NCBI GenBank assembly: GCA_965200875.1
Contig: OZ241456.1
Coordinates: 334,588-398,587, forward strand
Length of the DNA: 64,000 nucleotides
Source: Bdellovibrionales bacterium
GTDB lineage: Bacteria; Bdellovibrionota; Bdellovibrionia; Bdellovibrionales; UBA1609
Reading direction: 5' to 3'
The notes under the pieces: generated by a model
Database searches by the model: none
What the model saw: only the letters and a program-made list of their open reading frames with translations
Told to the model about the DNA's origin: nothing
Program-made: the position numbers and the translations under genes
Part shown: piece after piece, positions 1 through 21,720 of the stretch
Position numbering within the stretch: position 1 is the first letter of the stretch
Layout: each line of letters starts with the position of its first letter

Positions 1-797
1 TTTAATTCCTTCAGCTTAAAGCAACATACATAACCTTTTCCACTTGGAGAGTTTTCGTTTCCAGCTGAAAGGTCCTTGTATGAAGGCGGGTACTTTGGAT
101 GTTTAGCGATTGATGAACCTATGTGGTTTGTTTGTGTTACTTTAAATTTATAATCATATATTTCGAGTGCATATTTTTGATGGGTTGTTTTTTTTAGGAG
201 GGAAACAAAGGTTTTTAAGTATTCTTCTCTTTTCTGATACGGTAGTAGCCTCCAATGAAAAACAAATATTTGTTTGATGGAAATTTTCGGAGTATTAGGA
301 TATTGGCTAAAGCTTTTATAGGCAGATTCTTTTGCAGACCATAAAGCGGAAGAAGAGGGAGCGTGGTTTAATTCCTCTTTATGGGAAATACGTAAGACTG
401 TTTTTTCACTAGCTCTTCCCCATTGTTCCAGATCAAAACCTATGCTTTGCCGGAAAGGAGCAATAATAAAACCTCCCATAAAAGTCGAGTGAGAAAGAGA
501 TATGGAGGCAAAAGAAGTTTTTGGAGGAATACCGGGCTTTAGCAATATTTTTTTTTGTTCCTGGGAAAATATACCTTTTTGATCTGAAGCTCCGAGAATG
601 GTTGATTTCAGATTTGCCGGAGTTTTTTTCAGTAGTGCTGGATTTCGCTTTTCCAGCTCGTGGAGTAAAAACCGGCGTAGTTTTTTTCTTTGTTCCATTG
701 GAGAGTTTTTTTTGTCAAAAGTCATTAAGTGGCATGTTAACTTGCAACCAAGCCTCTGGCTGTTTTTCTCCACTATGTGTTCAAGATTTTTCAACAT
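1..797 (-). CDS. 4'-phosphopantetheinyl transferase family protein (partial; 3' end runs off window start)
   Basis: Absent from the ORF track because it has no stop in the window. My minus-strand translation from the ATG at 795-797 stays open to position 1: MLKNLEHIVEKN...ISLSHSTFMGGF...IGFDLEQW...ALWSAKESAYKSF. It carries the SxSHS, GxDxE and WxxKE(S/A)xxK motifs of Sfp/AcpS-type PPTases. It starts 9 nt after the ABC permease stop. Confidence 0.6.
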   Translation of the reverse strand, partial: MLKNLEHIVEKNSQRLGCKLTCHLMTFDKKNSPMEQRKKLRRFLLHELEKRNPALLKKTPANLKSTILGASDQKGIFSQEQKKILLKPGIPPKTSFASISLSHSTFMGGFIIAPFRQSIGFDLEQWGRASEKTVLRISHKEELNHAPSSSALWSAKESAYKSFSQYPNTPKISIKQIFVFHWRLLPYQKREEYLKTFVSLLKKTTHQKYALEIYDYKFKVTQTNHIGSSIAKHPKYPPSYKDLSAGNENSPSGKGYVCCFKLKEL

Positions 798-805
798 AAA
801 CTATC

Positions 806-1603
806 TTACCAAGGTTGGTAACTTCCTTTTTTTAAAGTCCATATTGCTGCAATATGAAATAGCAGTAACCCCAATAAGGAGATCCAAAAGGCCACATTAA
901 TAGGCACATCTGAAAGCCCCAGCACTCCATAACGTACTCCGTTTATAAAATAAAGCAGTGGGTTAAAGTAAGACACTTTAATCCAAAAAGGGCTTAAGTT
1001 TTCCAGAGAAAAAAACACTCCCCCAAGGGAAATCAAAGGCAAAATAATAAACCCGCCGATAGCACTTACATGGTCAAAGCTTTTAGCCCAAAACGCCACT
1101 GCGATTCCAAGCTTGGTAAAAGCCAGTCCTCCAATGACACAAAAAAGCACAAAGTAAAAAGGATGAGCAGGGACCAACCAAGCACTTTCGTGGAAATAGT
1201 AAAAAAGCTCTCCCGAAAGCAAAACAACCAATCCCACAACCAATCCCCGGAATAACCCTCCTAGGGACATGGCCCATATAATTTGCTGGATTGTCAGCGG
1301 GGAAGCTTTAATATCCACGATTTCCCCGGTAAATTTCATACCTAATAAAGAGCTGGAACCATTTTGATAGCTGTTGTTCATACATCCCATCATCACCAAT
1401 CCGGGTATTAAAAACTCCAAATAAGATAACTCCTCTAACACCTGAATATTTTTTCCAAGGCTGACTCCAAAAATAAGCAGGTAAATGAAAGAATTAATGG
1501 CAGGAATAAAAATAGTTTGAGCGAGTACTTTGATGAATCTTTGCACTTCCCGGTAAAGCAATATGAAAAAAGGTGTCCATACCAGATCTTGTTTTTTATT
1601 CAT
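806..1603 (-). CDS. ABC-2 type transporter permease
   Basis: 265-aa polytopic membrane protein with about 6 hydrophobic segments. It lies 5 nt downstream of an ABC ATPase gene, the typical ABC-2 exporter pairing. Confidence 0.8.
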   Translation of the reverse strand: MNKKQDLVWTPFFILLYREVQRFIKVLAQTIFIPAINSFIYLLIFGVSLGKNIQVLEELSYLEFLIPGLVMMGCMNNSYQNGSSSLLGMKFTGEIVDIKASPLTIQQIIWAMSLGGLFRGLVVGLVVLLSGELFYYFHESAWLVPAHPFYFVLFCVIGGLAFTKLGIAVAFWAKSFDHVSAIGGFIILPLISLGGVFFSLENLSPFWIKVSYFNPLLYFINGVRYGVLGLSDVPINVAFWISLLGLLLFHIAAIWTLKKGSYQPW

Positions 1604-1608
1604 ATTTT

Positions 1609-2517
1609 TTAAATATCTCCTTTGTTTAGCACATATTTAAAAGCTTCTTCCAAAGTGCCTTCCCGGATTTTCATATCCAATATGTTATGGCTTTGAAAAT
1701 TTACTTCAGAAAAAAATTGTCCAATTTCTAGGGAATAGGGTACACGAAATTCCAAAATATTATCGTGGCTTTTTACAAGAGTGGGATGCACGCACTTCAT
1801 CTTGTTTTTCAGGGTGATTGTTAGATGACGGGAGGTAAGTTTTTGGACCAGTTTTTTTGTGTTTCCCTGTTTTTGGATCTGTCCTTTATGGATAATGGCC
1901 ACTCGATCACAAAGTTGTTCCGCTTCTTCCAGATAGTGTGTGGTGAATAAAATGGCCACTCCAGTTTTTTTTAATTGTAACACCTGCTCCCAAATGGAGT
2001 ATCTTAATTCCACATCCACACCGGCTGTAGGTTCATCCAGCAAGAGTAATTTTGGGGAATGCCCCAGAGCTTTGGCGATCATTAATCGACGCTTCATTCC
2101 TCCGCTGAGTTGACGAACTTTTTTATGTCTGTGTTCCCATAGTTCCAGCTGTTTCATTAATTCCGGGATTTTTTTGTTGTGGGAAAAACCATAGTAACCA
2201 GAATGAAAATTTAACACCTCAGACACATTAAAGTATCCGTGGGTAATAATCTCCTGTGGCACCACACCTGTTATGGATTTAACAGCTCTTTCGTTTTGTA
2301 TAATATTCATATCATTTATGGTGATTTTGCCTTTAGTGGATTTTTCCAAAGTGGTGATCATGGAGATGATGGAAGTTTTACCAGCTCCATTTGGGCCAAG
2401 AAGACCAAACACCTCTCCTGAGTGCACTTCAAAAGACACCTGATTGACAGCACAAAAATCGCCATAGTTTTTTACCAAGTTTTCAATTTTTAAAACAGCC
2501 ATAATTTTTTGCTCCAA
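1609..2517 (-). CDS. ABC transporter ATP-binding protein
   Basis: Walker A GPNGAGKTS, ABC signature LSGGMKRR, Walker B LLLLDEPT, H-loop TTHYLEE. Confidence 0.9.
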   Translation of the reverse strand: MEQKIMAVLKIENLVKNYGDFCAVNQVSFEVHSGEVFGLLGPNGAGKTSIISMITTLEKSTKGKITINDMNIIQNERAVKSITGVVPQEIITHGYFNVSEVLNFHSGYYGFSHNKKIPELMKQLELWEHRHKKVRQLSGGMKRRLMIAKALGHSPKLLLLDEPTAGVDVELRYSIWEQVLQLKKTGVAILFTTHYLEEAEQLCDRVAIIHKGQIQKQGNTKKLVQKLTSRHLTITLKNKMKCVHPTLVKSHDNILEFRVPYSLEIGQFFSEVNFQSHNILDMKIREGTLEEAFKYVLNKGDI

Positions 2518-2757: not shown

Positions 2758-3681
2758 ATGTTTGAAAATGATAAAAATAACCCCGCTTTATATCAAATAG
2801 TGAGTTTTTATCGTTTTGTTTCTTTTCCAAAGCCCGTTTTAAAACAAATGAAGGAAACTCTGATAAAAACCGGTGCGGAAAAAAACATTGTGGGCTTGAT
2901 TCTCCTAAGTGTGGAAGGTATCAATGCCACCATTTCAGGAAATAAAGACAATGTAAATGACTATTTGCGGACAGTGGAACAGATTACGGGTATCGATAAC
3001 TTTTTTTATAAAAAATCTCCATCTCCCATTCCAGCTTTTAAAAAGTTAAGGGTAAAAGCGAAACAGCAGATTATTTCTTTTAGGAAGTCGCAAAGCGTCA
3101 CAGCGGATTTTGGATTTCATAATTTGGAACCCGATGAATGGGAGTCCTTGTTAAATGAAGAACAAGTGACTGTTTTAGATATTAGAAATGATTATGAAAT
3201 AGAAGTGGGTCAATTTAAAAGATCGAGAAATCTAAAGTTAAAAGAATTTAGTGAATTTTCTGAAAAACTCAAATCCTCCACTTTGCCTAAAGCACAAAAG
3301 ACATTGCTCTATTGCACAGGAGGCATTCGGTGTGAGAAAGCCATACTGGAAATGAAGAAACAGGGTTTTAAAGAACTGTATCAACTTAAAGGGGGTATTT
3401 TAAATTATTTAAAAACATTTCCAAACAGGAGTTTTGAAGGGGAATGTTTTGTTTTCGATCATCGTGTCGCAGTGGATCAAAACTTAAAAGCCTCCAGTAA
3501 ATATGCCCTTTGCCCTCATTGTGGCCAAGCGGGAGGAAAGACTATTGATTGTCTGCACTGTGGAAAAAAATTTAAAATCTGTAAGCACTGCTTAAAAAAA
3601 CAAATTAAATATTTAATGACTTGCACAAAAAACTGCTCGCATCATTTTCGTATGGGACATAAATGCAAAAAAGTTTTTTAA
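2758..3681 (+). CDS. trhO: rhodanese-domain protein, UPF0176/TrhO family (tRNA U34 hydroxylase)
   Basis: Active-site loop LYCTGGIRCEKA, YceA/TrhO-like N-terminal domain, and a Cys/His-rich C-terminal tail (CPHCG...CLHCG...CKHC). Confidence 0.8.
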   Translation: MFENDKNNPALYQIVSFYRFVSFPKPVLKQMKETLIKTGAEKNIVGLILLSVEGINATISGNKDNVNDYLRTVEQITGIDNFFYKKSPSPIPAFKKLRVKAKQQIISFRKSQSVTADFGFHNLEPDEWESLLNEEQVTVLDIRNDYEIEVGQFKRSRNLKLKEFSEFSEKLKSSTLPKAQKTLLYCTGGIRCEKAILEMKKQGFKELYQLKGGILNYLKTFPNRSFEGECFVFDHRVAVDQNLKASSKYALCPHCGQAGGKTIDCLHCGKKFKICKHCLKKQIKYLMTCTKNCSHHFRMGHKCKKVF

Positions 3682-3729
3682 AGGAAAAACAGTTGCATAA
3701 ACTTTGCTTTAAGTCTTAGACTAAAAAAT

Positions 3730-4653
3730 ATGTGGTTTGGAATATTAGCTTTTGTTTTTTGTTTTTCTTATTTTGCAGAAGGTGCGGATTGGTTTTCCGG
3801 GAAGAATATGACCTTGGAAGAGAAAATAAAATTGACAGAGCGTATAAGAATACAAACAGTGAAACAAAAAAACTCTTCAGCCCAAAAACATAAATATATG
3901 CGGAGCAATAATAAAAAATCATCTGTTCACTCTCCTTCTCGTTTATATGTTTCGAAAAAAGATCGTCATAATGTCAGAATGATTTTAGCTCTTCCTTTGG
4001 AAAACAGAAAACAGGCTTTATGGAATTACGGAGCACGGGGTTTTCTGGCTTTAAAGTATTTGGTGTTTTCAAAAAAAGAGCAAATGTCTGTTCGTTGGAA
4101 GGCTTTAACCAGTTTGGCGCGTTTATACCCGGAAGAGGCCCTCCCTATTTCCAGAAAGGCTCTTCGTAGTTCTGTTTGGTTCTTAAGGAATGCTGGTTTA
4201 ATAGCCATAGAGATCATAGATGTAAAAGAGAGTATTCAGAGGGCGGGGGATTTGTTGAACGATCCTTCTTTAATTGTCAGAACAGCCGCTGTTGATGTCC
4301 TTAAAAGAAATAAAGCCAGCCAGTATAAAATTCAGCTGATGGAAAAGTTAAATGCCCCTGATAGCTTTTACAAAAACAAGAGCCTTTGGATTCGTCACCA
4401 TATTGTGTCTGCTCTGGCCAGTTTTTGTGAACCCGGGGAGGAAAGAATGTTTATTGCTTTTCTTAAGGATCCGGATGAAAGATTGCATGCTTATGCTATT
4501 TCCGCTTTGGAAACATTAACAGGAAAGACATTTCGCACCACTGGCGACAAACGGAAAGTGGCTGAAAAAACACAAAAAAATAAATGGATAAGTTGGTGGA
4601 CAGAAGGTCGTTATAACTCCAAAACCCACTCTGAAATTTCCATAAAGCTCTAG
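3730..4653 (+). CDS. exported HEAT-repeat protein
   Basis: N-terminal hydrophobic signal-like segment (MWFGILAFVFCFSYFAEG). Repeated helical units of HEAT/PBS-lyase style follow (LIVRTAAVDVLKR, ERLHAYAISALETLTG). Confidence 0.5.
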   Translation: MWFGILAFVFCFSYFAEGADWFSGKNMTLEEKIKLTERIRIQTVKQKNSSAQKHKYMRSNNKKSSVHSPSRLYVSKKDRHNVRMILALPLENRKQALWNYGARGFLALKYLVFSKKEQMSVRWKALTSLARLYPEEALPISRKALRSSVWFLRNAGLIAIEIIDVKESIQRAGDLLNDPSLIVRTAAVDVLKRNKASQYKIQLMEKLNAPDSFYKNKSLWIRHHIVSALASFCEPGEERMFIAFLKDPDERLHAYAISALETLTGKTFRTTGDKRKVAEKTQKNKWISWWTEGRYNSKTHSEISIKL

Positions 4654-4666
4654 TTTTTTTCATTTT

Positions 4667-5289
4667 TTACATATCAATATTCGGTACGCCACCATAAGCT
4701 CCGGCCAAATATTTTTTAAAAATATTTTCATCATTTCTTATTCCTGGAAATTCATCTAATCTGTATACTTCACTTTCGCATTCCTGGTTTTTTTGAACTA
4801 AAAATATCTGATATTTAGAGAGCACGCTCATTAAAATCGGCGTATGTGTAGCACAAATGAGTTGAGCACCTTTTGGATTGGTTTCTTCGGAAGTAAATAA
4901 ATTAACCAAGGTTGGCAATATATTGGGATGTAAGTTGCGCTCTATTTCATCGATTAAAAACACAGAGCCTTTTTTTAAAGTTGGAAATATAAAACTTAGC
5001 AGATTGTATAAGTGTTGAGTCCCTCCTGATTCAAGAGGTAAAGGAAGCTTGAATGTTTTATCTTTACTTTTATGTATTCCATACGGGAAAAAATGTTTCT
5101 GTTTATTCCCTCTGAAAAAACAGATGACACCTTGGAGAATCGATCACCTTCATTACACAAACCAAAATGACTGGTTTTAGGGGCATTTTCATTGACCAAA
5201 AAATTCATTTTCACCTCTTCTTTAAAAGAGTAAAAATTTTTGAGTCCAATAGAGATGATTGTCATTTGAAACTCCTTTTTGCAAAACAC
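4667..5289 (-). pseudogene. decayed AAA_21/AAA_15-type ATPase (defence-island-type ATP-binding protein), frameshifted and internally deleted
   Basis: N-terminal fragment (4996-5289) begins MTIISIGLKNFYSFKEEV, typical of this family, but the Walker A GxxGxGKS/T is missing. The C-terminal fragment is in another frame. It reads upstream of its first Met as ...LPLPLESGGTQHLYNLLSFIFPTLKKGSVFLIDEIERNLHP (signature plus Walker B), then ICATHTP. Total about 200 aa against about 350-450 aa for intact members. Confidence 0.55.
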
Positions 5290-5518
5290 TATAAAACTGG
5301 TTTATTTTAGATTATTTTAACGAAAAATCTTATATTATTTATATAAATAATATATAAGCTATAATATAATCTTAATTTCAACAAAAAATCGTTAAAAGTC
5401 AACTTTTTATTGTTGATTTTTTTCCCTTAAAGGGGATTTCTCCTGTTTAATTCAGTTTTTGGGTCATAGGTAAAGGGATAATAGGGGAAAAATAAAGCTT
5501 TTTTATTGCTTTTTTATG

Positions 5519-6013
5519 TTAGCTTGCAGAAGATCTTTTATGGTGGTTGGTGATAGCTCGTTCTATATTAATTTCCCGGTGAATGCGATATAAAATGGAT
5601 CGTTCTTCCAGACCATTTGAGGGTATTCGTTTGGGGTTTTCTATAAAGCCTTTTTGAAGAAGTATCTTTTTTAAGACAGTTACTTTTACAGCAGGTCGGG
5701 ATTTGGACTTTCCTTTTATCATTTTTATATGGAGGGTGTATTTTGCGGCCGCTAAGGTGTCATTTCTTTCCACCGGGAATTTCCATATTGTTTCTACAGG
5801 AATACTTTCTGTTTTTAAATATCCTTTTTCATTGTTTTCCGCTTCTATGGGATAGTCTTCCAGAGCTAACATGGTCGCACTCCAGATTTTTTGATAATCA
5901 GCCTGGAATATTTTTGAAATCGGGTGCATAATATTAGCAACCGGGTCTTTAGTCGCGCAACCGGATAACAGGAAAACAGAAAAAAGTGAAAACACCACAT
6001 AAAATATTTTCAT
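5519..6013 (-). CDS. lipoprotein, function unknown
   Basis: Signal peptide with lipobox FLLSG|C (MKIFYVVFSLFSVFLLSGCATKD). 164 aa. Confidence 0.6.
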   Translation of the reverse strand: MKIFYVVFSLFSVFLLSGCATKDPVANIMHPISKIFQADYQKIWSATMLALEDYPIEAENNEKGYLKTESIPVETIWKFPVERNDTLAAAKYTLHIKMIKGKSKSRPAVKVTVLKKILLQKGFIENPKRIPSNGLEERSILYRIHREINIERAITNHHKRSSAS

Positions 6014-6094: not shown

Positions 6095-6114
6095 AGTTTG
6101 GCAATTATTATTAT

Positions 6115-6188
6115 GGCGGGGTAGCTCAGGTGGTTAGAGCAGCGGAATCATAATCCGCGTGTCGGGGGTTCAAGTCCCTCCCTCGCTA
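6115..6188 (+). tRNA. tRNA with CAU anticodon (elongator tRNA-Met; the lysidine-modified tRNA-Ile2 cannot be excluded)
   Basis: Hand-folded cloverleaf. Acceptor GGCGGGG/CCTCGCT (two G-U pairs), D arm GCTC-AGGTGGTTA-GAGC, anticodon arm GCGGA-ATCATAA-TCCGC, T arm GGGGG-TTCAAGT-CCCTC, discriminator A. CCA is not encoded. It is not initiator-like: there is no C1-A72 mismatch and no GGG/CCC anticodon stem. Confidence 0.85.
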
Positions 6189-6308
6189 CTTTACTTTAAA
6201 GTGACAACTTCCCGCTTTCGGGGTCGATCCCACTTTTGTTTTTCAAGAAAGTCTTAAAAAATTCCGATTCTTGATATAACTGGTCCAAAATATTGAGAGT
6301 ATGGAGAA

Positions 6309-8000
6309 ATGAACCGAAAAACAAATAATATACGCGCATTAAAAATCAGATCTGTTTTTTTCTGTTCTGTTTTTTTCTGTTTAGCTCTTTGGCTGGGGCT
6401 GAACTTGCTTATACGATCCGGGTCGGAAACGGAAAACACTTCCAAGAGTTTTGTTTTTGTTCGGGATCCTGCCAATGCTTTGTTTCCCGCCAGCCCCGCT
6501 GTGATACCAGCCGGTACACAAATGATGATACCTCCTTGGGTGTTGCAACAATACCACCTAAGTCCGCAAAATTCTCTGTATGGGGACCCTTTAAATTTTT
6601 TGATATATAACTATGGCAAATCTGCTCCTTCTGTTGATAACGAAGATGAAGATGACATATATGTTCCTCTCACACGTTATAAAAGTGAAAATTACTATCG
6701 GGGTTATGATGATTATGATGATGACGATTATTATGATCGTGGAAGAGATGATACAGTTATGATGTCTGTAACTCATTTGCAGGTAGCACCTGATTCCGCA
6801 CCGGGAGGAGCAGAGCCACCGGGAGCAGGGTTCGCACCGGGAGCAGAGCCACTGGGAGGAGCAGAAAGTCCACCAGCAGAGGACGAAAAACCACAAGGCC
6901 CAAATGGCCCTGTTTTTGTTACGACAGAATCTGTTGATACCAGTCAAGTTCCTGAGACTCCTGCACTTCGCCCGGAGGAGAATTTATCTGCTACATATCC
7001 TGCCACTTGTGATACCACTGATGATGCTTTGTCAGATACAGAAGCGTCTGCACCTTGTGTGAATTGCGAGGATCAGCAACAGGGTTTTTTAACTCAAGTT
7101 GGAAAAGAGGTGAATAGAATTGCAAGAGGAAAAAAATTTCCATTAGTCATAAGAAAAATTTGTGACAAATGTTCTCAAGTGGATATAAATGATTTAGTGG
7201 GATATATGGAACAAAGATCCAAGAGTGAAAATGTGCCTCCAGAAATTATGTTTGCTATTATGCTTCGTGAATCCAATGGAGATTGCGATGTGAGCGGGGA
7301 TAGTGATACCAGTTTTGGTTTATTTCAACTCAATGTAAAAAACAGCTCGAAACTTAGGGTTTGTGAAGCCAATGAATTAAAAAATCAAACTGCAAGCGCA
7401 CAAAAAACAGCCTGTAAAAATGGTGCTTATAGAAAAAATTCTAACTATGAAAATGTGCAGTATAAGAGTCAAGGAGGTCCAGATTTTAATCAAAGGCCAA
7501 GTATTGGAGTAAATGTGTGTTTAAATAACCCTTATTGTAACTTTGAGGAGGCTTTGCATTTGTTGAAAGGGGAAAAGTGGCAAATAGGAAATAATAGAGG
7601 AGAGAGAGACAGGAGCAAGCACAAGCAAAAACCTCGCGGAAAAAGCTGGCAGGAAATGAGTGGAGAAGAAAGAAATCTATGGAGAAACGCTATTATTGCC
7701 TATAATGGAGATTATTATCATTGGCAAGCTAAGGGGGCTATGGAGAGTGCTCAAGTGTCTGCTGAGCATTTTGATGATTGGGAGCGAAAACGAATATATT
7801 TTTTGCGACAATATTTGAATATTGGAAACCGAAATAATAAAACTGATTCGCAAAACCGCCAAGCGCAAAAAAATCTCATCCATAATCTGGCTTATGTGGA
7901 AAGAATTACGGGCCGGGAAGCACGCGGGGGTTTGGTGGGCTCTTCTATCTGCCAGTGGACTAAATTCAGAACAGAAAATGCAAAACTATCCTGCAACTGA
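6309..8000 (+). CDS. secreted protein with acidic/low-complexity linker and C-terminal lytic transglycosylase (SLT-like) domain
   Basis: N-terminal hydrophobic signal. Asp/Tyr-rich stretch YYRGYDDYDDDDYYDRGRDD. APGGAEPPGAGFAPGAEPLGGAE repeats. SLT family-1 motifs IMLRESNGD (catalytic Glu-Ser), FGLFQLN and IIAYNGDYY. Confidence 0.7.
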   Translation: MNRKTNNIRALKIRSVFFCSVFFCLALWLGLNLLIRSGSETENTSKSFVFVRDPANALFPASPAVIPAGTQMMIPPWVLQQYHLSPQNSLYGDPLNFLIYNYGKSAPSVDNEDEDDIYVPLTRYKSENYYRGYDDYDDDDYYDRGRDDTVMMSVTHLQVAPDSAPGGAEPPGAGFAPGAEPLGGAESPPAEDEKPQGPNGPVFVTTESVDTSQVPETPALRPEENLSATYPATCDTTDDALSDTEASAPCVNCEDQQQGFLTQVGKEVNRIARGKKFPLVIRKICDKCSQVDINDLVGYMEQRSKSENVPPEIMFAIMLRESNGDCDVSGDSDTSFGLFQLNVKNSSKLRVCEANELKNQTASAQKTACKNGAYRKNSNYENVQYKSQGGPDFNQRPSIGVNVCLNNPYCNFEEALHLLKGEKWQIGNNRGERDRSKHKQKPRGKSWQEMSGEERNLWRNAIIAYNGDYYHWQAKGAMESAQVSAEHFDDWERKRIYFLRQYLNIGNRNNKTDSQNRQAQKNLIHNLAYVERITGREARGGLVGSSICQWTKFRTENAKLSCN

Positions 8001-8001
8001 T

Positions 8002-10575
8002 TTATCTGCATATATTTTTATAGTTGTTATTATGTGTGCCAATATAGATTATCTGAATAATGCCATTTTGATCTTTCTTCCAACACACAACATACTTTTT
8101 TCCACTTATATGGGCATGATAAACATGTCTGTCTCTGAATCTAAATCCTGTTGAGGGTTTACTTACTCCTCTTGGTAGTGTTTCGTTTGGAGGAGGTGAT
8201 AATCCTGTTCTTCGTAAAATATTCATTAATTGTGTAAGCTCGTTCAATTTCTCTGGTGGGAATTTATTGCCTTTGTGACCTATATTATTTGCTCTATTGT
8301 ATGGAAGCATTACTATGTGGTTTTCTCCTGCTCTTCTTTTTATCCGTGTTAAACCATTTAATAATTCTTGTATTTGTGTTTCGTCCGTTCTTGCTAATAG
8401 ATTGCTGAGGATAGTTACTGTCCGCTCTCTTTCCTGTTCCAGTGTTTGTGGTGGTCTGTTGTGTCCAACCACTCCATCTTCCATAAGTGCTCTTACTTGT
8501 GAGGCTATAAAACCAGCTTCTCTTAGTATTGTGGCTTTCTGTCTGATTTCAGGTCGGGTATAGACAGTGCGAGCTTGGTTTATCCAATTAGTGACTCTAC
8601 TAAGCCTTTCTTCTCCTACAAGATGTGCTCTGTGGATGGCTCTTACTTGATCATTGCTTAAAGTTTGCCCCAAGCTTTCTTCTGCTGATTTTCTGAGTCT
8701 TCGTAAGTCACTTATTTTTTCAGAAGTTTTTTGAATCGTACGAGCTAAAGCCACAGTCCCGGGAACAGCAACTGGGAGAGATAGCAAAGCCACATTCATC
8801 AGGCAGGATTTGTAATTTGCCTTTAAAGTGGCTGTCTCCTTGATTTCTTCACTACAGCTGTTGTTAGAACTTTGAAACTTAGCTCCCTCTATCCGATTCC
8901 AGTTTTCATTGCATTCGTCAAAAGTGTCTTGTACATGATCCATTGAAGCCAAAACTTCCGCACTCAATAAAGCCCCCGTCATGCCTCGTGTTGGCTTGGT
9001 TGCTCTTCCTGCTGAAAGCACTCTTGCCACTTTTACTGCCGCTTTTCCTCCTAAAGCGATTCCTGTAAGTCCTAATGTTCCTGCCATCAACAAAGCATCT
9101 AAAGCCAGACCTTCCATTAAGTCATTGGCACTTTCTCTTTTGTCTCTGGCCTCTTCCCGGCATTGCGCCGCCTTGAGTGCAGAAAGCGAAGAGTCCCTCA
9201 GGCCATAGCTGTTGGGGCTTTCCAAATCATCCAGCTTAGGAGAGCTGGCAATAACCTGCAAAGTATTTTGACATTGTTCAGGATCATAAACTTGACTGTT
9301 CAAACATTTTAAAGCTTGTTTTTGCTCTTTCAGTGTGTCCATCAGCTCGAGACTGGTCACCTCTGCTTGATCTTTAAGTAATCGAACCACCTGTTGAGGA
9401 GACTCCTTTTCCTCTTCCAGAAGATCCGAAAGCCCAGACTTAAATTTATTGCCGTTTATCCAAGGGTAAAGCTCATCAATCATCCCTATTGTTGAAGTTA
9501 GTTTTTTTTCCTGATCTGTCAAAGATTTCAAATCCTCACTCAGCACTGATAAATTCTCTGGAGCTTCAGAGTTTTGCCGGTCTGGTCTGGTTTTGGACCA
9601 AGCCCCTGTCCGGTTTCTTTGAATATACTGATCTGCTACAGAAGTTATTTGCGGGCGAACAGATTTTTTAAGCTTATCCTCTAAAAGCTTTTTGGCCTGA
9701 AGGGCCTGTATGGTTTGTTCAGCCACATCAAGGGATTTTCCAGGAGCGGAACATTGTTTTAAGTTCTCGCACTTTTCAACAAGTGCGGGAAATTCCTGAA
9801 AATCACAAGCCACTTCAGGGAGCAGGGAGTGGCCTTCTTCTCCGACCATTTCACCTAAACTGGCAAGGCTGGTCAAAGTTTGCTCAATGCCTCTTTCAAG
9901 TTTCTTCATGGAATAATAGTAATCGGCCACAAATCGTGTTTGATCCTTGGTTGTAACTGCTCTTCCACTTATCCTGCCACGCCGGCCTCTTCCGCTTCTT
10001 CCACCGACCCGGTTTGTTGTCTGAGGAAGACAGTCAGGGGAGCTTACAGGTCTTAGGGGAATAAACGATTCAATAAAATCAGCTTGATTGATATCAGCTT
10101 CCAGATGAGAGGGGTTTGGTTTTGCTCCATCGGTTTCACATTGGGAAATAGGTGAAGAGACTATCCCCAGATGAGAGCTTTTTTGATCCTGAGACAAAAA
10201 TGTTTTTAAAATGTTGGGACAGCCAAAGAGAGCCTGGTTTTCTAGGCAAACTCCGGCGCAATTTTCTTCCAAAGGATCTCTTATGGAATTAATTTCCAAA
10301 AGAGTGCTCATTTGTTCTTCGGCAAACTGGTTATGGCATTTCCGCTTTTCCGATTCCTGATTTAAGTTTATAAATTCCTCTAAAGAGGGACAAAAGCAAC
10401 CCGTTTCTGTATAATAAACTCCACCGATCTCAGAACACTGTCTGGTGTTGTTTCTTTCTTCACGGGTTTGTTGATCATCCTGGAGAGATGATCTGTCTGG
10501 TTGAGCCAAGGCTGTTGTTATTATCAACATCCAAGTTGTAAGAGTCATAATCATTTTTACGAGAATCATAATCAT
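8002..10575 (-). CDS. large secreted modular protein with C-terminal YafQ/RelE-like (BECR-fold) endoribonuclease domain; polymorphic-toxin-like
   Basis: Signal peptide ...MIMTLTTWMLIITTALA|QPD, then a Cys-rich N-terminal region, an Arg/Gly tract and long coiled-coil-like segments. Two hydrophobic helices follow (GLALDALLMAGTLGLTGIALGG; CLMNVALLSLPVAVPGTVALA). The last ~105 aa align by eye to E. coli YafQ: KLNELTQLMNIL...LSPPP...GFRFRDRHV...YVVCWKKDQNGIIQIIYIGTHNNNY versus KLKYLMTLL...LPLP...GYRDAHV...WILIYKLTDKLLRFERTGTHAALF. Confidence 0.7.
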   Translation of the reverse strand: MIMILVKMIMTLTTWMLIITTALAQPDRSSLQDDQQTREERNNTRQCSEIGGVYYTETGCFCPSLEEFINLNQESEKRKCHNQFAEEQMSTLLEINSIRDPLEENCAGVCLENQALFGCPNILKTFLSQDQKSSHLGIVSSPISQCETDGAKPNPSHLEADINQADFIESFIPLRPVSSPDCLPQTTNRVGGRSGRGRRGRISGRAVTTKDQTRFVADYYYSMKKLERGIEQTLTSLASLGEMVGEEGHSLLPEVACDFQEFPALVEKCENLKQCSAPGKSLDVAEQTIQALQAKKLLEDKLKKSVRPQITSVADQYIQRNRTGAWSKTRPDRQNSEAPENLSVLSEDLKSLTDQEKKLTSTIGMIDELYPWINGNKFKSGLSDLLEEEKESPQQVVRLLKDQAEVTSLELMDTLKEQKQALKCLNSQVYDPEQCQNTLQVIASSPKLDDLESPNSYGLRDSSLSALKAAQCREEARDKRESANDLMEGLALDALLMAGTLGLTGIALGGKAAVKVARVLSAGRATKPTRGMTGALLSAEVLASMDHVQDTFDECNENWNRIEGAKFQSSNNSCSEEIKETATLKANYKSCLMNVALLSLPVAVPGTVALARTIQKTSEKISDLRRLRKSAEESLGQTLSNDQVRAIHRAHLVGEERLSRVTNWINQARTVYTRPEIRQKATILREAGFIASQVRALMEDGVVGHNRPPQTLEQERERTVTILSNLLARTDETQIQELLNGLTRIKRRAGENHIVMLPYNRANNIGHKGNKFPPEKLNELTQLMNILRRTGLSPPPNETLPRGVSKPSTGFRFRDRHVYHAHISGKKYVVCWKKDQNGIIQIIYIGTHNNNYKNICR

Positions 10576-10595
10576 TCAGTTGTTTGCAGGCTAGC

Positions 10596-10622
10596 TTATC
10601 GGTTGTCTTTTTGTGGACTTTA
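10596..10622 (-). promoter_or_regulatory. sigma-28 (FliA)-type promoter candidate for the 8002-10575 gene
   Basis: The minus strand reads TAAAGTCCacaaaaagacaACCGATAA (TAAA-N15-ACCGATAA). It is nearly identical to the 2600 copy. The -10 element ends about 20 nt upstream of the first in-frame ATG (10575). Confidence 0.4.
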
Positions 10623-10880
10623 GACTTTTATCTTAATTTTTTTAATGAAGCTCAAAAAAATCGTTTATTTTCCCAGACCATTAAATGCGCTCTCTCTTCC
10701 TTTTAAATGTGCGCACTCTTCCTTACAGGAAAGAAATGTTTTTTGAGTTTAGTCTTAGGTCCTGAAGTTATCTTTGGTCTTAATTTTTTTTTAATATATG
10801 TCGAAACAGTAATAAGAGGCAGTCGTTCTTTAAGCCGTGAAGCGATGTTTTTTAAATTGTGAATATGAGGTAATTTGTAG

Positions 10881-12254
10881 ATGATATTACGAAAAATGTT
10901 GAGAAATAAAGTCATTATGGTGGTTGGTGTTTTAATCAGTTTTTTAACTTTGGCTTTTCTTTTTTCTTCCTGTGGTTTTGTGAACAAGGGAGGGCCAGGT
11001 TCTTTTCAGGTGGCAAGCCAAGGAGGGCCGGGGGATGGAGAAACGCCCACTTTAGGCCCCCGCTTGCGGGATAACCCCCAATTGGCCGAAGAGAAGTGTG
11101 AGGATAATGATCGTTGTAAGGAGACCTGTCGGGATATGTACCCTGATAGCTATAAAGAATGTTATGGCCTTACCATTCAACAGGTATCCGATGTGGAAAA
11201 TGTTTTTTATGCTCTCGTAAACGCAGATTCCGAAGAGCTGGAAGATATCGATGGCGATCATCTAAAAAATTATCTGAAGATTGGTTTAGATAGCTGGCAA
11301 GAAAGAGTGATCGAAAAACTGACCAGTAAAGATAATCGAAATGCCCGATTTTCCAATATTCTAACATGGATTGTAAACGAAGAAAAAGATGTAGTTCCCC
11401 TTTTGGAAAAAGAAGATCCGAAAAATGAAATTCTTGAACAAATTGTGCTGAAATATTGTAATGTGGCAGATAGTGGCAGATGTGGAAACACGGATAGTGC
11501 AAATCCCCACACTGGAGTTAATAATTTTCCGACAGGTTCTTGTGCTCTTAAGATAACAACCTCCACTGAGCCTAGTTATCGTTTTCCAAGTACTCCTAGT
11601 TGTACGGCTGGTAGCCCTGCTACTCACTATGTTTGTCCAGAGCTTAGTTATTTCCCGGAATACTCCATTGCTCATTCATTTACTACATTTAACGAGAGTG
11701 ATGTTAGTATTGTTACTCAAGATAACCGGGGTTTTGCCTATGGTAACACTCAAGATGGTAAAGATGGTGTGGTGTTTGATTATGCGGATGATGGGGGATT
11801 ATATTATTGCTATCATTTAGCAGTCAAAACATCAGATCCTACCAAATGCTCAGGTGGGGGCTTTAATACTAACTTTATTGGTGACGATTACCCTTGTATC
11901 ACTTTAACGCATAAAAAATTGGCTGAGATAGAAGATGATGACGATAAAGATCTGTTTATGTCTTTGGTGGGAGTGGGAAAGGTGTTTTTTAACAAAGCTG
12001 CTGACGATCTCAAAACAAGTGCTTTTGCTCTTGGGCATAAGCTTTTGGAAAAAGCCTGTAGTGGAGGCACTGATACATCTCTTACTCAATGTATGAGTGT
12101 GTTTTATTGCTGGTTAAATGATCATATAGGTGACGCAGAGATTTCAACAGGTACAGACAGTGAAAAATCATTCCTAAGAAACTCTGATCTTCAGGAAAAA
12201 ATAGAACTGAGGATTGCTGATTTGGAAGAGTGCGATTATAGCAATTTTGACTGA
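10881..12254 (+). CDS. Cys-motif lipoprotein, paralog family member A
   Basis: Lipobox LAFLFSS|C. Motif C-x5-C-x3-C-x11-C (CEDNDRCKETCRDMYPDSYKECY). Shares its C-terminal block (ALGHKLLEKAC...YCW) with the next gene. GAGG RBS upstream. Confidence 0.65.
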   Translation: MILRKMLRNKVIMVVGVLISFLTLAFLFSSCGFVNKGGPGSFQVASQGGPGDGETPTLGPRLRDNPQLAEEKCEDNDRCKETCRDMYPDSYKECYGLTIQQVSDVENVFYALVNADSEELEDIDGDHLKNYLKIGLDSWQERVIEKLTSKDNRNARFSNILTWIVNEEKDVVPLLEKEDPKNEILEQIVLKYCNVADSGRCGNTDSANPHTGVNNFPTGSCALKITTSTEPSYRFPSTPSCTAGSPATHYVCPELSYFPEYSIAHSFTTFNESDVSIVTQDNRGFAYGNTQDGKDGVVFDYADDGGLYYCYHLAVKTSDPTKCSGGGFNTNFIGDDYPCITLTHKKLAEIEDDDDKDLFMSLVGVGKVFFNKAADDLKTSAFALGHKLLEKACSGGTDTSLTQCMSVFYCWLNDHIGDAEISTGTDSEKSFLRNSDLQEKIELRIADLEECDYSNFD

Positions 12255-12324
12255 ACTTTAACAGAGCGATACTTAAAATGATAATGCTCTTTAAGGAATA
12301 AATAGTGGGAAGGAGAGTAAAAAA

Positions 12325-13698
12325 ATGCAAAAAATCAGTTTAAAATCAAAGACAAAGTGTGCTTCTTTTTTTAAAAGAGAAAAAAAGAGCTTAGGATTTT
12401 ATCATATCCGTTTTTTCTCTGGCAAAGGTATGGGAGGTCCATCTTGGAGAAAAATTATCACTTTTTGGCTTCTTATTTTTTCTTTGGGTAGTCTTTTTTC
12501 ATGTGGGCTGGCCAATTATAATTTTGGTTCTTCTAATTCTTCTGCGACTGTTCTGGATTCTCGATCTAATGATGATTCCACGGGAGAGTTTAATTCTCCT
12601 AAAGGTCGTCTGGAATCCTCTGACACTTGTTCCAAGAGTGAGGACTGCAAAGAGCTTTGCGATTCCATGTTGCAAAGATTTTCCTTCCAGAAAAAATGTT
12701 ACGAATATAAGGAAGTGGAAGTGCAGTCTTTTAGAGATGTTTATAACCTTTTAGCAGTGGGAAATCCCAGAAAGCTTTCGCGGGTGGATACAGAGAAGAT
12801 GGAAAAATTTTTAACTTTCGGCCCTGAGCTTTGGCAAGATGCCATTTACGGATTTGAAAGACAGAGAAAAGAAGATTGTACACCCAATGACGGGGCTGAT
12901 GATCCCACAGAGCGTGAGGATTGTAAGCTTGAGGGTTATTATAAACAGGAGGGTTACTGGAGTGGTGGAGCTTTGGCCGCTTTAGAGTGGATCGCAAAAA
13001 ACGACTGGCTGGCTGAGCTTATTGTAAGGCATGATGAAGACCTTGTAATTATGACAAGCCTCTTGGATGTTTTAGCTCATGGAGGAGGAAAAGTTTTTAA
13101 AGACCCAGATAGTGCTATAGAAACCCAAGACAATAAAAACAAAACTTGCAACTTGAATCTCATAGAATTGGATCTGAATGCTAATAGGAATTGTGACAAA
13201 CCAGCCACCGCTAATAATGAGGATTTTAACAAAGATAACGAATGTAGCTTTAAAGACTCTGATTTTGCAAATTTTCACGGCAGGCTTTCTCCTAACTCAG
13301 ATATCAGATTGGGTAATACACCCACCAGTATTTCCGTAAATTTGGAAAAACATTATAAGGCTTTTGGTGCAGACTGTGTAAGTGATGATCGTGAGAACTA
13401 TTTTATCATCGCCGTGGCGGAAAAAAACAAAAACTCATTAACCTTGGGTCATCAGATGGTGGATAAACTTTGCTCTGACGACATCACTTGCATCCGGTAT
13501 TTTTATTGTCATATTAAAAATGGGTTCAAACAGGGTGACTTGATCTCAGCCACAGACCGTTTCACTACAACAGGCACCCCACCAAAATCTGAACCCAAAC
13601 CCGCCCAAGAAGGCACAATACTGCATTACATGGATGATAATAAAGGATCGATTAGTGGCTTTAGAGCTAACACTTACAATAATTGCTATTTTCCATAA
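12325..13698 (+). CDS. Cys-motif lipoprotein, paralog family member B
   Basis: Same 457-aa length as the preceding gene. Lipobox LGSLFS|C. CSKSEDCKELCDSMLQRFSFQKKCY motif. C-terminal TLGHQMVDKLC...YFYCH. Strong RBS GGAAGGAGAG at 12325, but the signal peptide starts at Met36 (12430), so the true start is uncertain. Confidence 0.6.
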   Translation: MQKISLKSKTKCASFFKREKKSLGFYHIRFFSGKGMGGPSWRKIITFWLLIFSLGSLFSCGLANYNFGSSNSSATVLDSRSNDDSTGEFNSPKGRLESSDTCSKSEDCKELCDSMLQRFSFQKKCYEYKEVEVQSFRDVYNLLAVGNPRKLSRVDTEKMEKFLTFGPELWQDAIYGFERQRKEDCTPNDGADDPTEREDCKLEGYYKQEGYWSGGALAALEWIAKNDWLAELIVRHDEDLVIMTSLLDVLAHGGGKVFKDPDSAIETQDNKNKTCNLNLIELDLNANRNCDKPATANNEDFNKDNECSFKDSDFANFHGRLSPNSDIRLGNTPTSISVNLEKHYKAFGADCVSDDRENYFIIAVAEKNKNSLTLGHQMVDKLCSDDITCIRYFYCHIKNGFKQGDLISATDRFTTTGTPPKSEPKPAQEGTILHYMDDNKGSISGFRANTYNNCYFP

Positions 13699-21363: not shown

Positions 21364-21720
21364 TTAACCTGGTGGCCACTTCATGGGCCTACCTCCTAAA
21401 ATATGAATGTGAATATGATATACGGTCTGGCCACCGTCTGCTCCGGTATTTATCACCAGCCGCCAACCCTTTTTTAATCCCGCTTTCAAGGCGATTTCTT
21501 TTGCTTTTAAAATCAGGTGGCCCATGAGAGACAGATCTTCTGATTCCACCTCCCGATGACTGAAAATCTCTTTTTTGGGTATCAATAAAATATGAACAGG
21601 AGATTGAGGGTTTATATCATCAAAGGCAATACATAAATCATCCTCATAATGAATATTGGCTGGCACCTCTTTATTAATAATTTTTTGAAAAATAGTGGAA
21701 ATGGCAAATCTCCTTACCAA
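21364..21720 (-). CDS. HIT (histidine triad) family nucleotide hydrolase
   Basis: HIHIHILGG histidine-triad motif. Hint-like, 118 aa. Confidence 0.85.
   Translation of the reverse strand: MVRRFAISTIFQKIINKEVPANIHYEDDLCIAFDDINPQSPVHILLIPKKEIFSHREVESEDLSLMGHLILKAKEIALKAGLKKGWRLVINTGADGGQTVYHIHIHILGGRPMKWPPG

Follow-up and report, generated by a model that had tools for sequence, protein, structure and literature searches.

We found that an 857-aa ORF of an uncultured Bdellovibrionales bacterium, a member of a predatory lineage, is one of the few members of a so far undescribed family that, as judged from sequence, has the build of polymorphic toxins or effectors, with tails that appear to be exchanged in the manner of polymorphic-toxin warheads. 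We consider it probable, with moderate confidence, that the product is a Sec-exported, disulfide-rich member of a polymorphic-tail effector family, and that a RelE/ParE-like fold is the leading candidate for its tail. A preliminary description of the locus had gone further and proposed that the tail is a YafQ/RelE-type RNase, a claim that is not statistically supported. The features of the gene are collected in Table 1; “window” denotes the whole 64-kb stretch of DNA that was analyzed.

Table 1. Features of the 857-aa gene and its neighbors, with positions in the window
Feature	Position	Strand	Basis
Downstream 563-aa gene, convergent, weakly similar to lytic transglycosylases (SLT)	6309..8000	+	Pfam SLT E=4.5e-4, just under cut-off
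Gene for the predicted exported 857-aa protein	8002..10575	-	ORF list; 100%-identical database protein; five other relatives
Variable C-terminal tail, residues 748-857, basic alpha+beta domain	8005..8334	-	AlphaFold model; composition; conservation
Poorly conserved linker, probably helical, residues 705-747	8335..8463	-	Indels vs. P0002; low-confidence AlphaFold helix
Conserved 77-aa junction module, residues 628-704	8464..8694	-	Module HMM; similarity of relatives ends here
Second hydrophobic helix, ~residues 591-614	8734..8805	-	Kyte-Doolittle >=1.6
First Gly/Ala-rich hydrophobic helix, ~residues 488-516	9028..9114	-	Kyte-Doolittle >=1.6 over 19 aa
Cys-rich head, residues 47-182, 9 Cys	10030..10437	-	Cys positions
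Predicted Sec signal peptide, residues 1-24, MIMILVKMIMTLTTWMLIITTALA, cleavage before QP	10504..10575	-	Hydropathy, AxA site
Sigma-28 (FliA)-type promoter motif, TAAAGTCCACAAAAAGACAACCGATAA	10596..10622	-	Exact TAAAG-N15-CCGATAA
Two paralogous Cys-rich lipoprotein genes, 457 aa each, divergent from the family gene	10881..13698	+	Synteny; lipobox read from sequence

The Gene, Its Neighbors, and the Body of the Protein

The gene is real, and a database protein (P0001), annotated from Met10 with a length of 848 aa, is 100% identical to its product. A single nucleotide separates the TAA stop codon (complement of 8002-8004) from the TGA (7998-8000) that ends the convergent 563-aa gene, as previously described. 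This neighbor is not an immunity gene, and because the family gene in locus L001 has another downstream neighbor (Exo_endo_phos), the linkage is not conserved. The divergent lipoprotein pair, for which we found no Pfam family, keeps its place next to the family gene in L001 and L005, where the counterparts are 46% and 57% identical and the synteny is conserved. Directly downstream of the 857-aa gene there is no small ORF on the same strand, its upstream neighbor in the ORF list is divergent, and of the 29 small ORFs located between genes in the window, none stands out as antitoxin-like when judged by reading. The adjacent, co-oriented antitoxin gene of type II toxin-antitoxin systems is hence absent from this locus, and the earlier statement that no antitoxin lies next door holds locally.

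The signal peptide and the Cys-rich head proposed in the preliminary description both find support at the level of sequence. A hydrophobic N-terminal segment with an AxA-type site is likewise present in P0002, P0004, L004, and L006; an equivalent signal peptide is predicted in the five relatives with a reliably called N terminus, while in the sixth, P0003, the called start looks wrong. The protein contains 20 Cys, 9 of them within the head, and C110, C119, C146, and C182 are invariant in a four-sequence alignment. Two hydrophobic helices, described before as adjacent, are indeed present but lie ~75 residues apart. The first is kept in all family members, and the second is the start of a segment that the protein has in common with an 851-aa protein of locus L002 whose body is unrelated. 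Against an effector role, secretion past the inner membrane is putative, and the two helices may do no more than hold the protein in the producer’s own membrane. The body of the family proteins gave no match in Pfam, NCBIfam, PADLOC, or PDB, and nothing was found when the body was used as query against JGI metagenome contigs.

Unrelated Tails Follow a Conserved Junction Module

The family consists of six members, all from uncultured Bdellovibrionales: four proteins found among 5.8 billion clusters (one of which, P0001, is the window’s own protein) and two more loci in Bdellovibrionales MAGs. The comparison thus covers six loci only, all from MAGs or metagenomes, which also weighs against the effector reading. 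Every family member contains the junction module, with the pattern ...LG..L...Q..AI..AH.VG...YT..E.R.KA..L..AGF...Q.R.LME.G.VG, and an HMM of this module gives 97-118 bits in all of them as well as in an orphan ORF and in the 851-aa protein of L002. The module has no relative in Pfam, PDB, NCBIfam, or PADLOC, and it occurs once in the window in a six-frame scan with the module HMM. The tail helix LMNILRRTGL was considered as an extra copy of the module’s AGF[ST]xxQ motif and rejected, the HMM finding no second copy.

At least four unrelated tail types and one tail-less form are found after the module. One tail type is common to the window protein, P0002, and L004 (the latter truncated), and P0003 ends 4 residues past the module. 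Between P0004 and L006, 52% identity extends as far as the final residue of the module (670 and 636, respectively), beyond which the tails, of 492 aa and 331 aa, are unrelated to each other. In L002, an orphan ORF (430..1611) starts with a remnant of the module end, followed by a full module and then by a tail that is 50-55% identical to that of L006; the 851-aa protein of the same locus combines a different N-terminal body with the same junction module and a further tail. Neither a second tail copy nor an orphan cassette was detected in the window itself, using the six-frame module scan and tblastn with the tail. A conserved N-terminal region, unrelated C termini beginning at a conserved junction, and an orphan cassette in a related genome back the polymorphic or colicin-like delivered-toxin architecture that had been suggested for the protein.

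Two observations count against an effector function of these tails. First, no tail type resembles a known toxin family, the other tails having no match in Pfam, NCBIfam, PADLOC, or PDB. Second, none of the loci shows a dedicated immunity gene: none lies directly downstream in the window or after the tail in L006, and the small antitoxin-like genes that follow each module gene in L002 are not attributable to the tails. Immunity would not be needed if the tails were not toxins but interchangeable binding or recognition modules, carried on the exposed tip of a surface protein of the predator, an alternative that we regard as unlikely. It is in agreement with the lack of an immunity gene after any tail type, with the sigma-28-type promoter, with the tail-less member, which indicates a body that works alone, and with the L006-type tails, which show repeated GF[ST]xxE helix motifs and not an enzyme-like core. 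By analogy, the tails may be likened to the variable tips of phage tail fibers or of the Bdellovibrio MAT (mosaic adhesive trimer) fibers. B. bacteriovorus has attack-phase surface proteins with variable C-terminal binding domains, and MAT proteins form trimeric beta-helix fibers with binding tips and carry a ~130-aa beta-rich domain after the signal peptide; as here, they are predator proteins of the attack phase with a signal peptide, a conserved N-terminal part, diverse C termini, and no immunity genes (PMC10769870). However, a mostly helical structure, including hydrophobic helices, is predicted for the 857-aa family, and this and its orphan cassettes set it apart from the MAT proteins as these are described, and no similarity to a MAT or fiber domain appeared in the Pfam or Foldseek output. 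Moreover, orphan module-plus-tail cassettes, and the use of one module by different bodies, are most typically seen in polymorphic toxins. The small, strongly basic tail of the window protein, in which His, Arg, and Tyr residues are conserved, bears a closer resemblance to an enzyme or a nucleic-acid binder.

Features and Predicted Fold of the Tail

The tail of the window protein differs from the body in pI (10.2 vs. 5.5), GC content (34-35% vs. 43%), and GC3 (26% vs. 36%), in keeping with its being a distinct cassette. It is 45% identical to the tail of P0002, compared with 63% for the whole proteins. Conserved stretches are YHAHI, VVCW, and IIQIxYIG.H..NYK..C, with conserved His (820 and 822 in YHAHI, 848 in G[TK]H), Arg, Tyr, and Lys residues and a Cys pair, the latter suggesting that the domain may fold outside the cytoplasm.

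With 152 aa as input, AlphaFold gave no usable model (pLDDT 51), but a run on the 110-aa tail gave one (pLDDT 71, pTM 0.66) with a helix at 27-43, four strands, and a C-terminal helix (H12-15, H27-43, E64-66, E69-76, E81-87, E93-100, H103-109). The order of these predicted elements agrees with the BECR/RelE-like layout given in a 2026 preprint. In Foldseek searches of PDB and BFVD with this model, no match was found at E<0.09; the best toxin match, HigB (6af4_C), came at rank 7 with E=0.32 and TM 0.42, and had the longest coverage. Of the structural likeness to RelE-type toxins expected from the preliminary description, a compatible layout is thus seen in the model, whereas a significant structural match is not. 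At the sequence level, no tail relative was found among 1.84 billion representatives, in a word-indexed search at E up to 10, or in JGI metagenome contigs; tblastn of plasmids at E up to 10 returned three noise matches, none on an annotated toxin, and the tail profile recovered no RelE, ParE, HigB, or YafQ chain among PDB sequences. Taken together, the tail is a small, very basic, compact alpha+beta domain of ~90-110 aa, for which a RelE/ParE-like (BECR) RNase fold is the leading guess rather than a finding.

Relation of the Tail to YafQ, RelE, and HIT Domains

The tail could be a true RelE/YafQ-family, ribosome-dependent mRNA endonuclease that would be delivered into the prey cytoplasm, with the producer protected by export only. 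We hold this to be possible, if doubtful. PF15781 and TIGR02385 were the only matches of the tail in two libraries: the first (14.8-17.2 bits, cut-off 28; E 0.005-0.03) is the top Pfam match, the sole one in all queries but one, and persists after trimming, and the second (14.1-14.5 bits, cut-off 27.9) is the only NCBIfam match. The basic character of the tail, the compatible AlphaFold topology with HigB in the Foldseek top 10, and the existence of Tox-RelE as a known polymorphic-toxin warhead point in the same direction, as does an hhalign alignment to YafQ that is colinear over 80 columns (HAHI/DAHV, GTH/GTH, Tyr852/Phe91).

Against this, the profile scores are only about half the curated cut-offs and of the size obtained with scrambled sequence: 1 of 10 scrambled controls gave a match at E=0.025, tails of orthologs gave unrelated matches at E=0.02 and 0.0008, and the 45%-identical tail of P0002 had no RelE/ParE match in Pfam or NCBIfam. 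The YafQ models PF15738 and TIGR00053 were absent from the Pfam and NCBIfam output of the tail, and an HMM built from 93 YafQ sequences, run on the six-frame translation with all filters off, did not align it, so that profile searches yielded no significant match to the YafQ/RelE families. The full-length alignment to E. coli YafQ drawn in the preliminary description could not be told apart from chance: BLASTP covers 44 aa at E=0.34 and hhalign of the tail profile with YafQ gives a probability of 2.3% and P=0.02, with 5 of 300 column shuffles doing equally well. Among the 21 columns that are invariant across 32 YafQ sequences, the tail matches four in the best hhalign alignment (P44, H63, G85, and H87), and Lys stands in place of both H50 and D67; H50, H63, D67, and H87 are the catalytic residues in published YafQ work. 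As for the two catalytic-region His residues said to be retained, His 848 of the GTH motif is conserved, but His 817 (“RDRHV”) is Lys in P0002. We thus rejected membership in the YafQ family, based on the failure of the HMM, the four matched invariants, and the hhalign P value. The putative route across two prey membranes, which the endonuclease reading would require, also counts against that reading.

Low scores are nonetheless compatible with RelE/YafQ membership, because a degenerate YafQ-like toxin of L002 that is supported by its context also reaches just 17 bits. This ORF, located beside ParD, was examined as a bridge between the tail and RelE toxins and rejected (no BLASTP similarity; hhalign P=0.48). 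Broader RelE/YafQ profiles from viral contigs brought in near-identical or >=51%-identical sequences only and no added reach.

The statistically best hhalign match of the tail, above YafQ, was to HIT: against an alignment of four HIT sequences, P was 7e-4 and 0 of 200 shuffles reached the score. The pairs HIVMLP/HILLIP, GFRF/GWRL, and VYHAHI..G/VYHIHIHILGG are colinear, a helix ending in ...TGL corresponds to one ending in ...AGL at an identical 38-aa spacing, and the spacing in P0002 is near-identical to that of HIT. It is nevertheless extremely improbable that the tail, instead of coming from RelE, descends from a nucleotide-binding or hydrolase domain of HIT-like (histidine-triad) type. The triad is incomplete, with HxH but no third His (YHAHIS here, YHAHIE in P0002). 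HIT models are absent from the Pfam output, even with the E limit raised to 10, and the Foldseek lists for PDB and BFVD contain no HIT protein. The strand order predicted by AlphaFold is also wrong for HIT: the HxH strand is followed by two further confident strands, and an N-terminal beta-hairpin is missing. HIT was, in addition, picked post hoc among 15 comparisons. We therefore rejected it as the tail fold, and the main lesson of the comparison is that, with so shallow a tail profile, hhalign scores in this range are not to be trusted.

A Sigma-28-Type Promoter Motif Precedes the Gene

The FliA-type promoter reported for the gene is confirmed at the level of the motif, whose end lies 21 nt before the ATG. 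Whereas 0.02 exact copies of TAAAG-N15-CCGATAA are expected in the window, there are two, a count reached in 0 of 100 shuffles. A motif similar to the sigma-28 type is also present upstream of P0004 in L002, and in L006 the family gene lies directly 3′ of fliL and fliA. Given that most attack-phase genes of B. bacteriovorus are driven by the FliA/sigma-28 motif class (PMC3627812), we infer that the 857-aa family is probably expressed in the attack phase.

Discussion

The 857-aa family resembles polymorphic toxin systems in its conserved N-terminal secretion/trafficking part, in a conserved, pre-toxin-like junction module, in close relatives that bear unrelated tails, in an orphan cassette that keeps the junction piece for recombination, and possibly in a BECR/RelE-like tail. 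It differs from them in that its body, module, and tails have no Pfam, NCBIfam, PADLOC, or PDB relative, in that neither RHS or filamentous repeats nor a releasing peptidase was detected, in the lack of an adjacent immunity gene, in having a tail-less member, and in its predatory host lineage and sigma-28-type promoter. Compared with colicins and other modular bacteriocins, the protein likewise shows an N-terminal part, hydrophobic helices that may insert into membranes, and a small C-terminal domain of cytotoxic type. Colicins D and E5 end in BECR-fold RNases; colicins are not Sec-exported and are coproduced with an immunity protein. The 857-aa protein, on the contrary, is predicted to be Sec-exported, and no sequence or structural similarity to colicins was found.

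With the toxins of the YafQ-DinJ and RelE-RelB pairs, the tail has in common a small basic alpha+beta build and weak matches to ParE-like and RelE_StbE models; its order of strands and its C-terminal G-x-H...aromatic motif resemble those of YafQ and YoeB. Unlike them, it is not a standalone cytoplasmic protein of ~90 aa, has no antitoxin and a conserved Cys pair, and lacks both a significant YafQ/RelE profile match and most of the YafQ invariants. Tox-RelE has already been listed as a C-terminal toxin domain of Sec/T2SS-secreted polymorphic toxins, together with Imm54 (Zhang et al. 2012, PMC3482391). Since it is catalogued, a YafQ-type RNase warhead, even if true, is no new kind of thing, and the concept is less new than the preliminary description implied.

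In the model that we favor, that of a Sec-exported effector with exchangeable tails, the gene would be transcribed from the sigma-28-type promoter in the motile attack phase, and its product would be exported unfolded through Sec and then fold, with formation of disulfides, outside the cytoplasm. The body may serve for surface display or membrane insertion, and the swappable tail would be the effector end acting on prey or competitor cells. Toxicity, an RNase activity of the tail, and self-protection of the producer through export would be further elements of this model. Should the family indeed be a polymorphic effector system, it would be a rare example of an obligate predator lineage whose weapons change by cassette exchange, linked to the sigma factor of the attack phase and seemingly lacking immunity genes, and would bear on how predators avoid self-harm and diversify their prey range. 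The 77-aa module, which has no known relative, offers a search handle for mining predator genomes for new effector domains.

A more far-reaching version of this model, decidedly unlikely in our estimation, is that small-genome uncultured Bdellovibrionales possess their own polymorphic effector system, Sec-exported and sigma-28-driven, with the 77-aa module for the exchange of warheads by recombination and orphan cassettes as a reservoir. In it, a RelE-fold RNase would be directed against prey and not kin, and the producer could do without an immunity protein, as the toxin would at no time fold in its cytoplasm.

A family with a common junction module and exchanged tails

The stretch that had been proposed as a YafQ/RelE-type warhead (bases 8005-8319) constitutes the final 105 codons of an 857-codon ORF on the minus strand, whose stop codon lies a single base from that of a convergent gene, as previously stated. 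The N terminus of the protein carries a hydrophobic segment ending in ALA/QP, and 9 of its 20 Cys fall within residues 47-182, bearing out the signal peptide and the Cys-rich head that had been proposed. The two hydrophobic helices described as adjacent are in fact separated by about 75 residues (approximately residues 488-516 and 591-614). The descriptive part of the preliminary description (the gene, its export signals, the promoter motif and the lack of an antitoxin) thus holds. The convergent gene encodes a 563-aa protein with a weak lytic-transglycosylase (SLT) match just below the Pfam cut-off, a region rich in Pro/Ala/Gly and a conspicuous acidic Tyr/Asp run, YDDYDDDDYYDRGRDD.

No part of the body of the 857-aa protein has a relative in Pfam, NCBIfam, PADLOC or the PDB. 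Searching 5.8 billion clusters, we found only four protein matches, namely the gene product itself (P0001), P0002 (60% identity), P0003 (52%) and P0004 (27%). Two more, L004 (50%, cut by a contig end) and L006 (27%), came from a genome scan; the records are all titled MAGs of Bdellovibrionales, and two metagenome scans yielded no further family members. As called, P0003 opens with TLQAIGQTTFWV, a threefold repeat that precedes the part aligning with the signal peptides of the other members; its start codon was probably mis-called.

The main positive result comes from comparing these relatives, which share a module, carry swapped tails and include an orphan cassette. All members contain a 77-aa module (residues 628-704 of the 857-aa protein) ending in AGF[ST]xxQxRxLMExGVVG, which scores 97-118 bits in each member with its HMM, has no relative in Pfam or the PDB, and marks with its last residue the end of similarity between relatives. 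The 857-aa protein, P0002 and L004 have one tail type in common; P0003 terminates 4 residues past the module, and 84 bp separate it from the next gene; and P0004 and L006 are 52% identical as far as residues 670 and 636, respectively, beyond which their tails, 492 aa long in P0004 and 331 aa in L006, are unrelated. The L006-type tail recurs in the P0004 genome, in an orphan ORF of locus L002 that shares 55% identity with the end of L006 and consists of a remnant module end (MEEGVVG), a complete module and the tail. An 851-aa protein of the same locus has a repeat-rich N-terminal body of a different kind and yet another tail; what it has in common with the family is limited to the module and the second hydrophobic helix. 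In the 857-aa gene, the tail differs from the rest in GC content (34-35% vs 43%), GC3 (26% vs 36%) and pI of the product (10.2 vs 5.5), a contrast that gives it the look of a cassette of its own. Polymorphic toxin systems are defined by a conserved junction, by tails that are unrelated between close relatives and by orphan cassettes (PMC3482391), and the family resembles them in all three respects.

Coordinates and properties of the features discussed
Sequence	Feature	Position	Strand	Remark
Window	Sigma-28-type motif, copy 2, TAAAGTCCACAAAAAACGGACCGATAA	2600-2626	+	Exact match
Window	UPF0176/rhodanese-family gene	2758..3681
Window	Two adjoining short ORFs	4667..5289	-
Window	tRNA-Met gene	6115-6189
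Window	Convergent 563-aa gene	6309..8000	+
Window	Stop of convergent gene, TGA	7998-8000	+
Window	857-aa gene	8002..10575	-
Window	Stop of 857-aa gene, TAA	8002-8004 (complement)	-	One base from convergent stop
Window	Sigma-28-type motif, copy 1	Ends 21 nt upstream of 857-aa gene ATG	-	Exact match
Window	457-aa Cys-rich paralogs, lipoprotein-type signals	10881..12254, 12325..13698	+	No known family
Window	HIT protein gene	21364..21720	-
L001	Transposase_31 gene and two HTH_Rpn_C ORFs	6126..7436
L001	P0003 gene	From 8001
L002	Orphan ORF with module	430..1611
L002	851-aa protein with module	3284..5839
L002	P0004, with module	8001..11489
L002	ParD-like small gene			Own degenerate YafQ-like partner
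L002	206-aa ORF			4-nt overlap with preceding gene
L002	BrnA-like gene
L006	Stretch with fliL-like gene and fliA next to family gene	6100..7348

Relation of the tail to YafQ and RelE-type toxins

The preliminary description had aligned the tail with E. coli YafQ along its whole length. Using a YafQ query 97-100% identical to database YafQ proteins, BLASTP aligned only 44 residues (E=0.34), and an HMM built from 93 YafQ sequences did not align the tail at all when the six-frame translation of the window was searched with every filter disabled. In hhalign, the tail profile matched YafQ with a probability of 2.3% (P=0.02), a score that column shuffling equaled in 5 of 300 cases. When forced, the alignment is colinear and pairs HAHI with DAHV and GTH with GTH; the tail matches 4 of the 21 positions invariant among 32 YafQ sequences, and the His of “RDRHV,” put forward as a retained catalytic-region residue, is a Lys in P0002. 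Given the failed HMM alignment, the hhalign P value and the few invariant positions matched, we rejected membership of the YafQ family.

Profile searches with the C-terminal 120 aa gave a single match in Pfam, PF15781 ParE-like_toxin (E=0.021, 15.2 bits, cut-off 28), and a single one in NCBIfam, TIGR02385 RelE_StbE (E=0.038, 14.5 bits, cut-off 27.9), both far below the cut-offs. The PF15781 match persisted after trimming (E=0.005-0.03), and no such match was obtained in either database with the P0002 tail, which is 45% identical. Matches of this size can arise by chance, since 1 of 10 scrambled or reversed controls reached E=0.025 and ortholog tails matched the unrelated families STAS (E=0.02) and Acetyltransf_11 (E=0.0008). 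The tail profile retrieved no RelE, ParE, HigB or YafQ chain among PDB sequences and only itself among 1.84 billion representatives, and a word-indexed search with the tail returned nothing at E values up to 10.

As a control, we compared the tail by hhalign with six toxins of the RelE superfamily and eight small, unrelated proteins, each represented by one sequence. The top score went to one of the latter, a HIT protein encoded in the window, above YafQ; with so shallow a profile, a YafQ-sized score is thus not evidence. When four aligned HIT sequences were used, the tail reached P=7e-4, with none of 200 shuffles equaling the score. The match is colinear: HIVMLP pairs with HILLIP, GFRF with GWRL and VYHAHI..G with VYHIHIHILGG, and the spacing of a helix is identical. 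Assignment to HIT was nevertheless rejected, as the triad is incomplete, neither Pfam nor Foldseek supports it and the strands are predicted to follow a different order. The short motifs that the tail shares in colinear order with the HIT protein of the window, VYHIHIHILGG against VYHAHISG among them, may reflect either a chance match or a remote link.

AlphaFold gave a pLDDT of 51 for 152 residues, and of 71 (pTM 0.66) for the 110-residue domain, entered with one admissible ortholog, in which residues 23-110 were confident. The predicted order is a helix (27-43), four strands (64-66, 69-76, 81-87, 93-100) and a helix (103-109), which agrees with the layout that a 2026 preprint gives for RelE-like BECR domains but is a common alpha+beta meander. 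Foldseek gave no significant match in the PDB (best E=0.22; HigB 6af4_C at rank 7, E=0.32, TM 0.42 over 86 columns) or in BFVD (best E=0.09). The model leans weakly toward RelE/ParE, and a fold of this kind is our leading guess, to which we give somewhat less than an even chance.

Promoter motif and neighborhood

The FliA-type promoter proposed for the gene is borne out at the level of the motif, as the window holds two exact matches to TAAAG-N15-CCGATAA, against 0.02 expected. The second copy has its first 15 nt in common with the copy that precedes the 857-aa gene and is followed, after about 130 nt, by a UPF0176/rhodanese-family gene. P0004 also has a similar motif in front of it; for the other four relatives, including the tail-less copy in L001, the locus of P0003, the search for an upstream motif found none. 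In L006, a fliL-like gene and fliA (TIGR02479, 262 bits) immediately precede the family gene. Two thirds of the attack-phase promoters of B. bacteriovorus carry a motif of this class (PMC3627812). Based on the motif, the fliA context and this precedent, expression of the 857-aa gene in attack phase is a reasonable inference.

Divergently from the 857-aa gene are transcribed two paralogous genes for 457-aa proteins, an arrangement kept in L001/L005 (46% and 57% identity). In L001, a Transposase_31 gene and two HTH_Rpn_C ORFs separate the tail-less family gene from the lipoprotein pair. Elsewhere in the window, two adjoining short ORFs lie beside its sole tRNA gene, bordering a run of genes for orphan exported proteins (~5.5 to 20 kb); similarity of the first is confined to the C-terminal end of AAA_21 ATPases, pointing to a gene that was split or has decayed.

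Absence of adjacent immunity genes

As reported before, no small co-oriented ORF follows the 857-aa gene, and among the small ORFs between the genes of the window, 29 in all and including L31, IF-1, PurS and a HIT protein, none stands out as an antitoxin by reading. Neither the window nor L006 has an adjacent immunity gene. In L002, a small antitoxin-like gene follows each module-bearing gene on the same strand, these being the ParD-like gene, the 206-aa ORF and the BrnA-like gene; the region is a toxin-antitoxin-rich island, and these small genes cannot be tied to the tails. The three module genes of this locus lie within 11 kb, interspersed with three AAA_14-DUF4143 genes, the ParD-like gene with its degenerate YafQ-like ORF and the BrnA-like gene. 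The absence of immunity genes fits equally well with effectors aimed at prey, from which the producer would be protected by export, and with tails serving as binding modules, like those of Bdellovibrio MAT fibres (PMC10769870).

Taken together, the 857-aa protein is most aptly described as belonging to a new effector family with polymorphic tails in uncultured Bdellovibrionales. Should its tail prove RelE-like, it would still represent a kind of warhead already catalogued as Tox-RelE (PMC3482391); what is new is the family itself, along with the junction module, the predator host and the immunity-free context.
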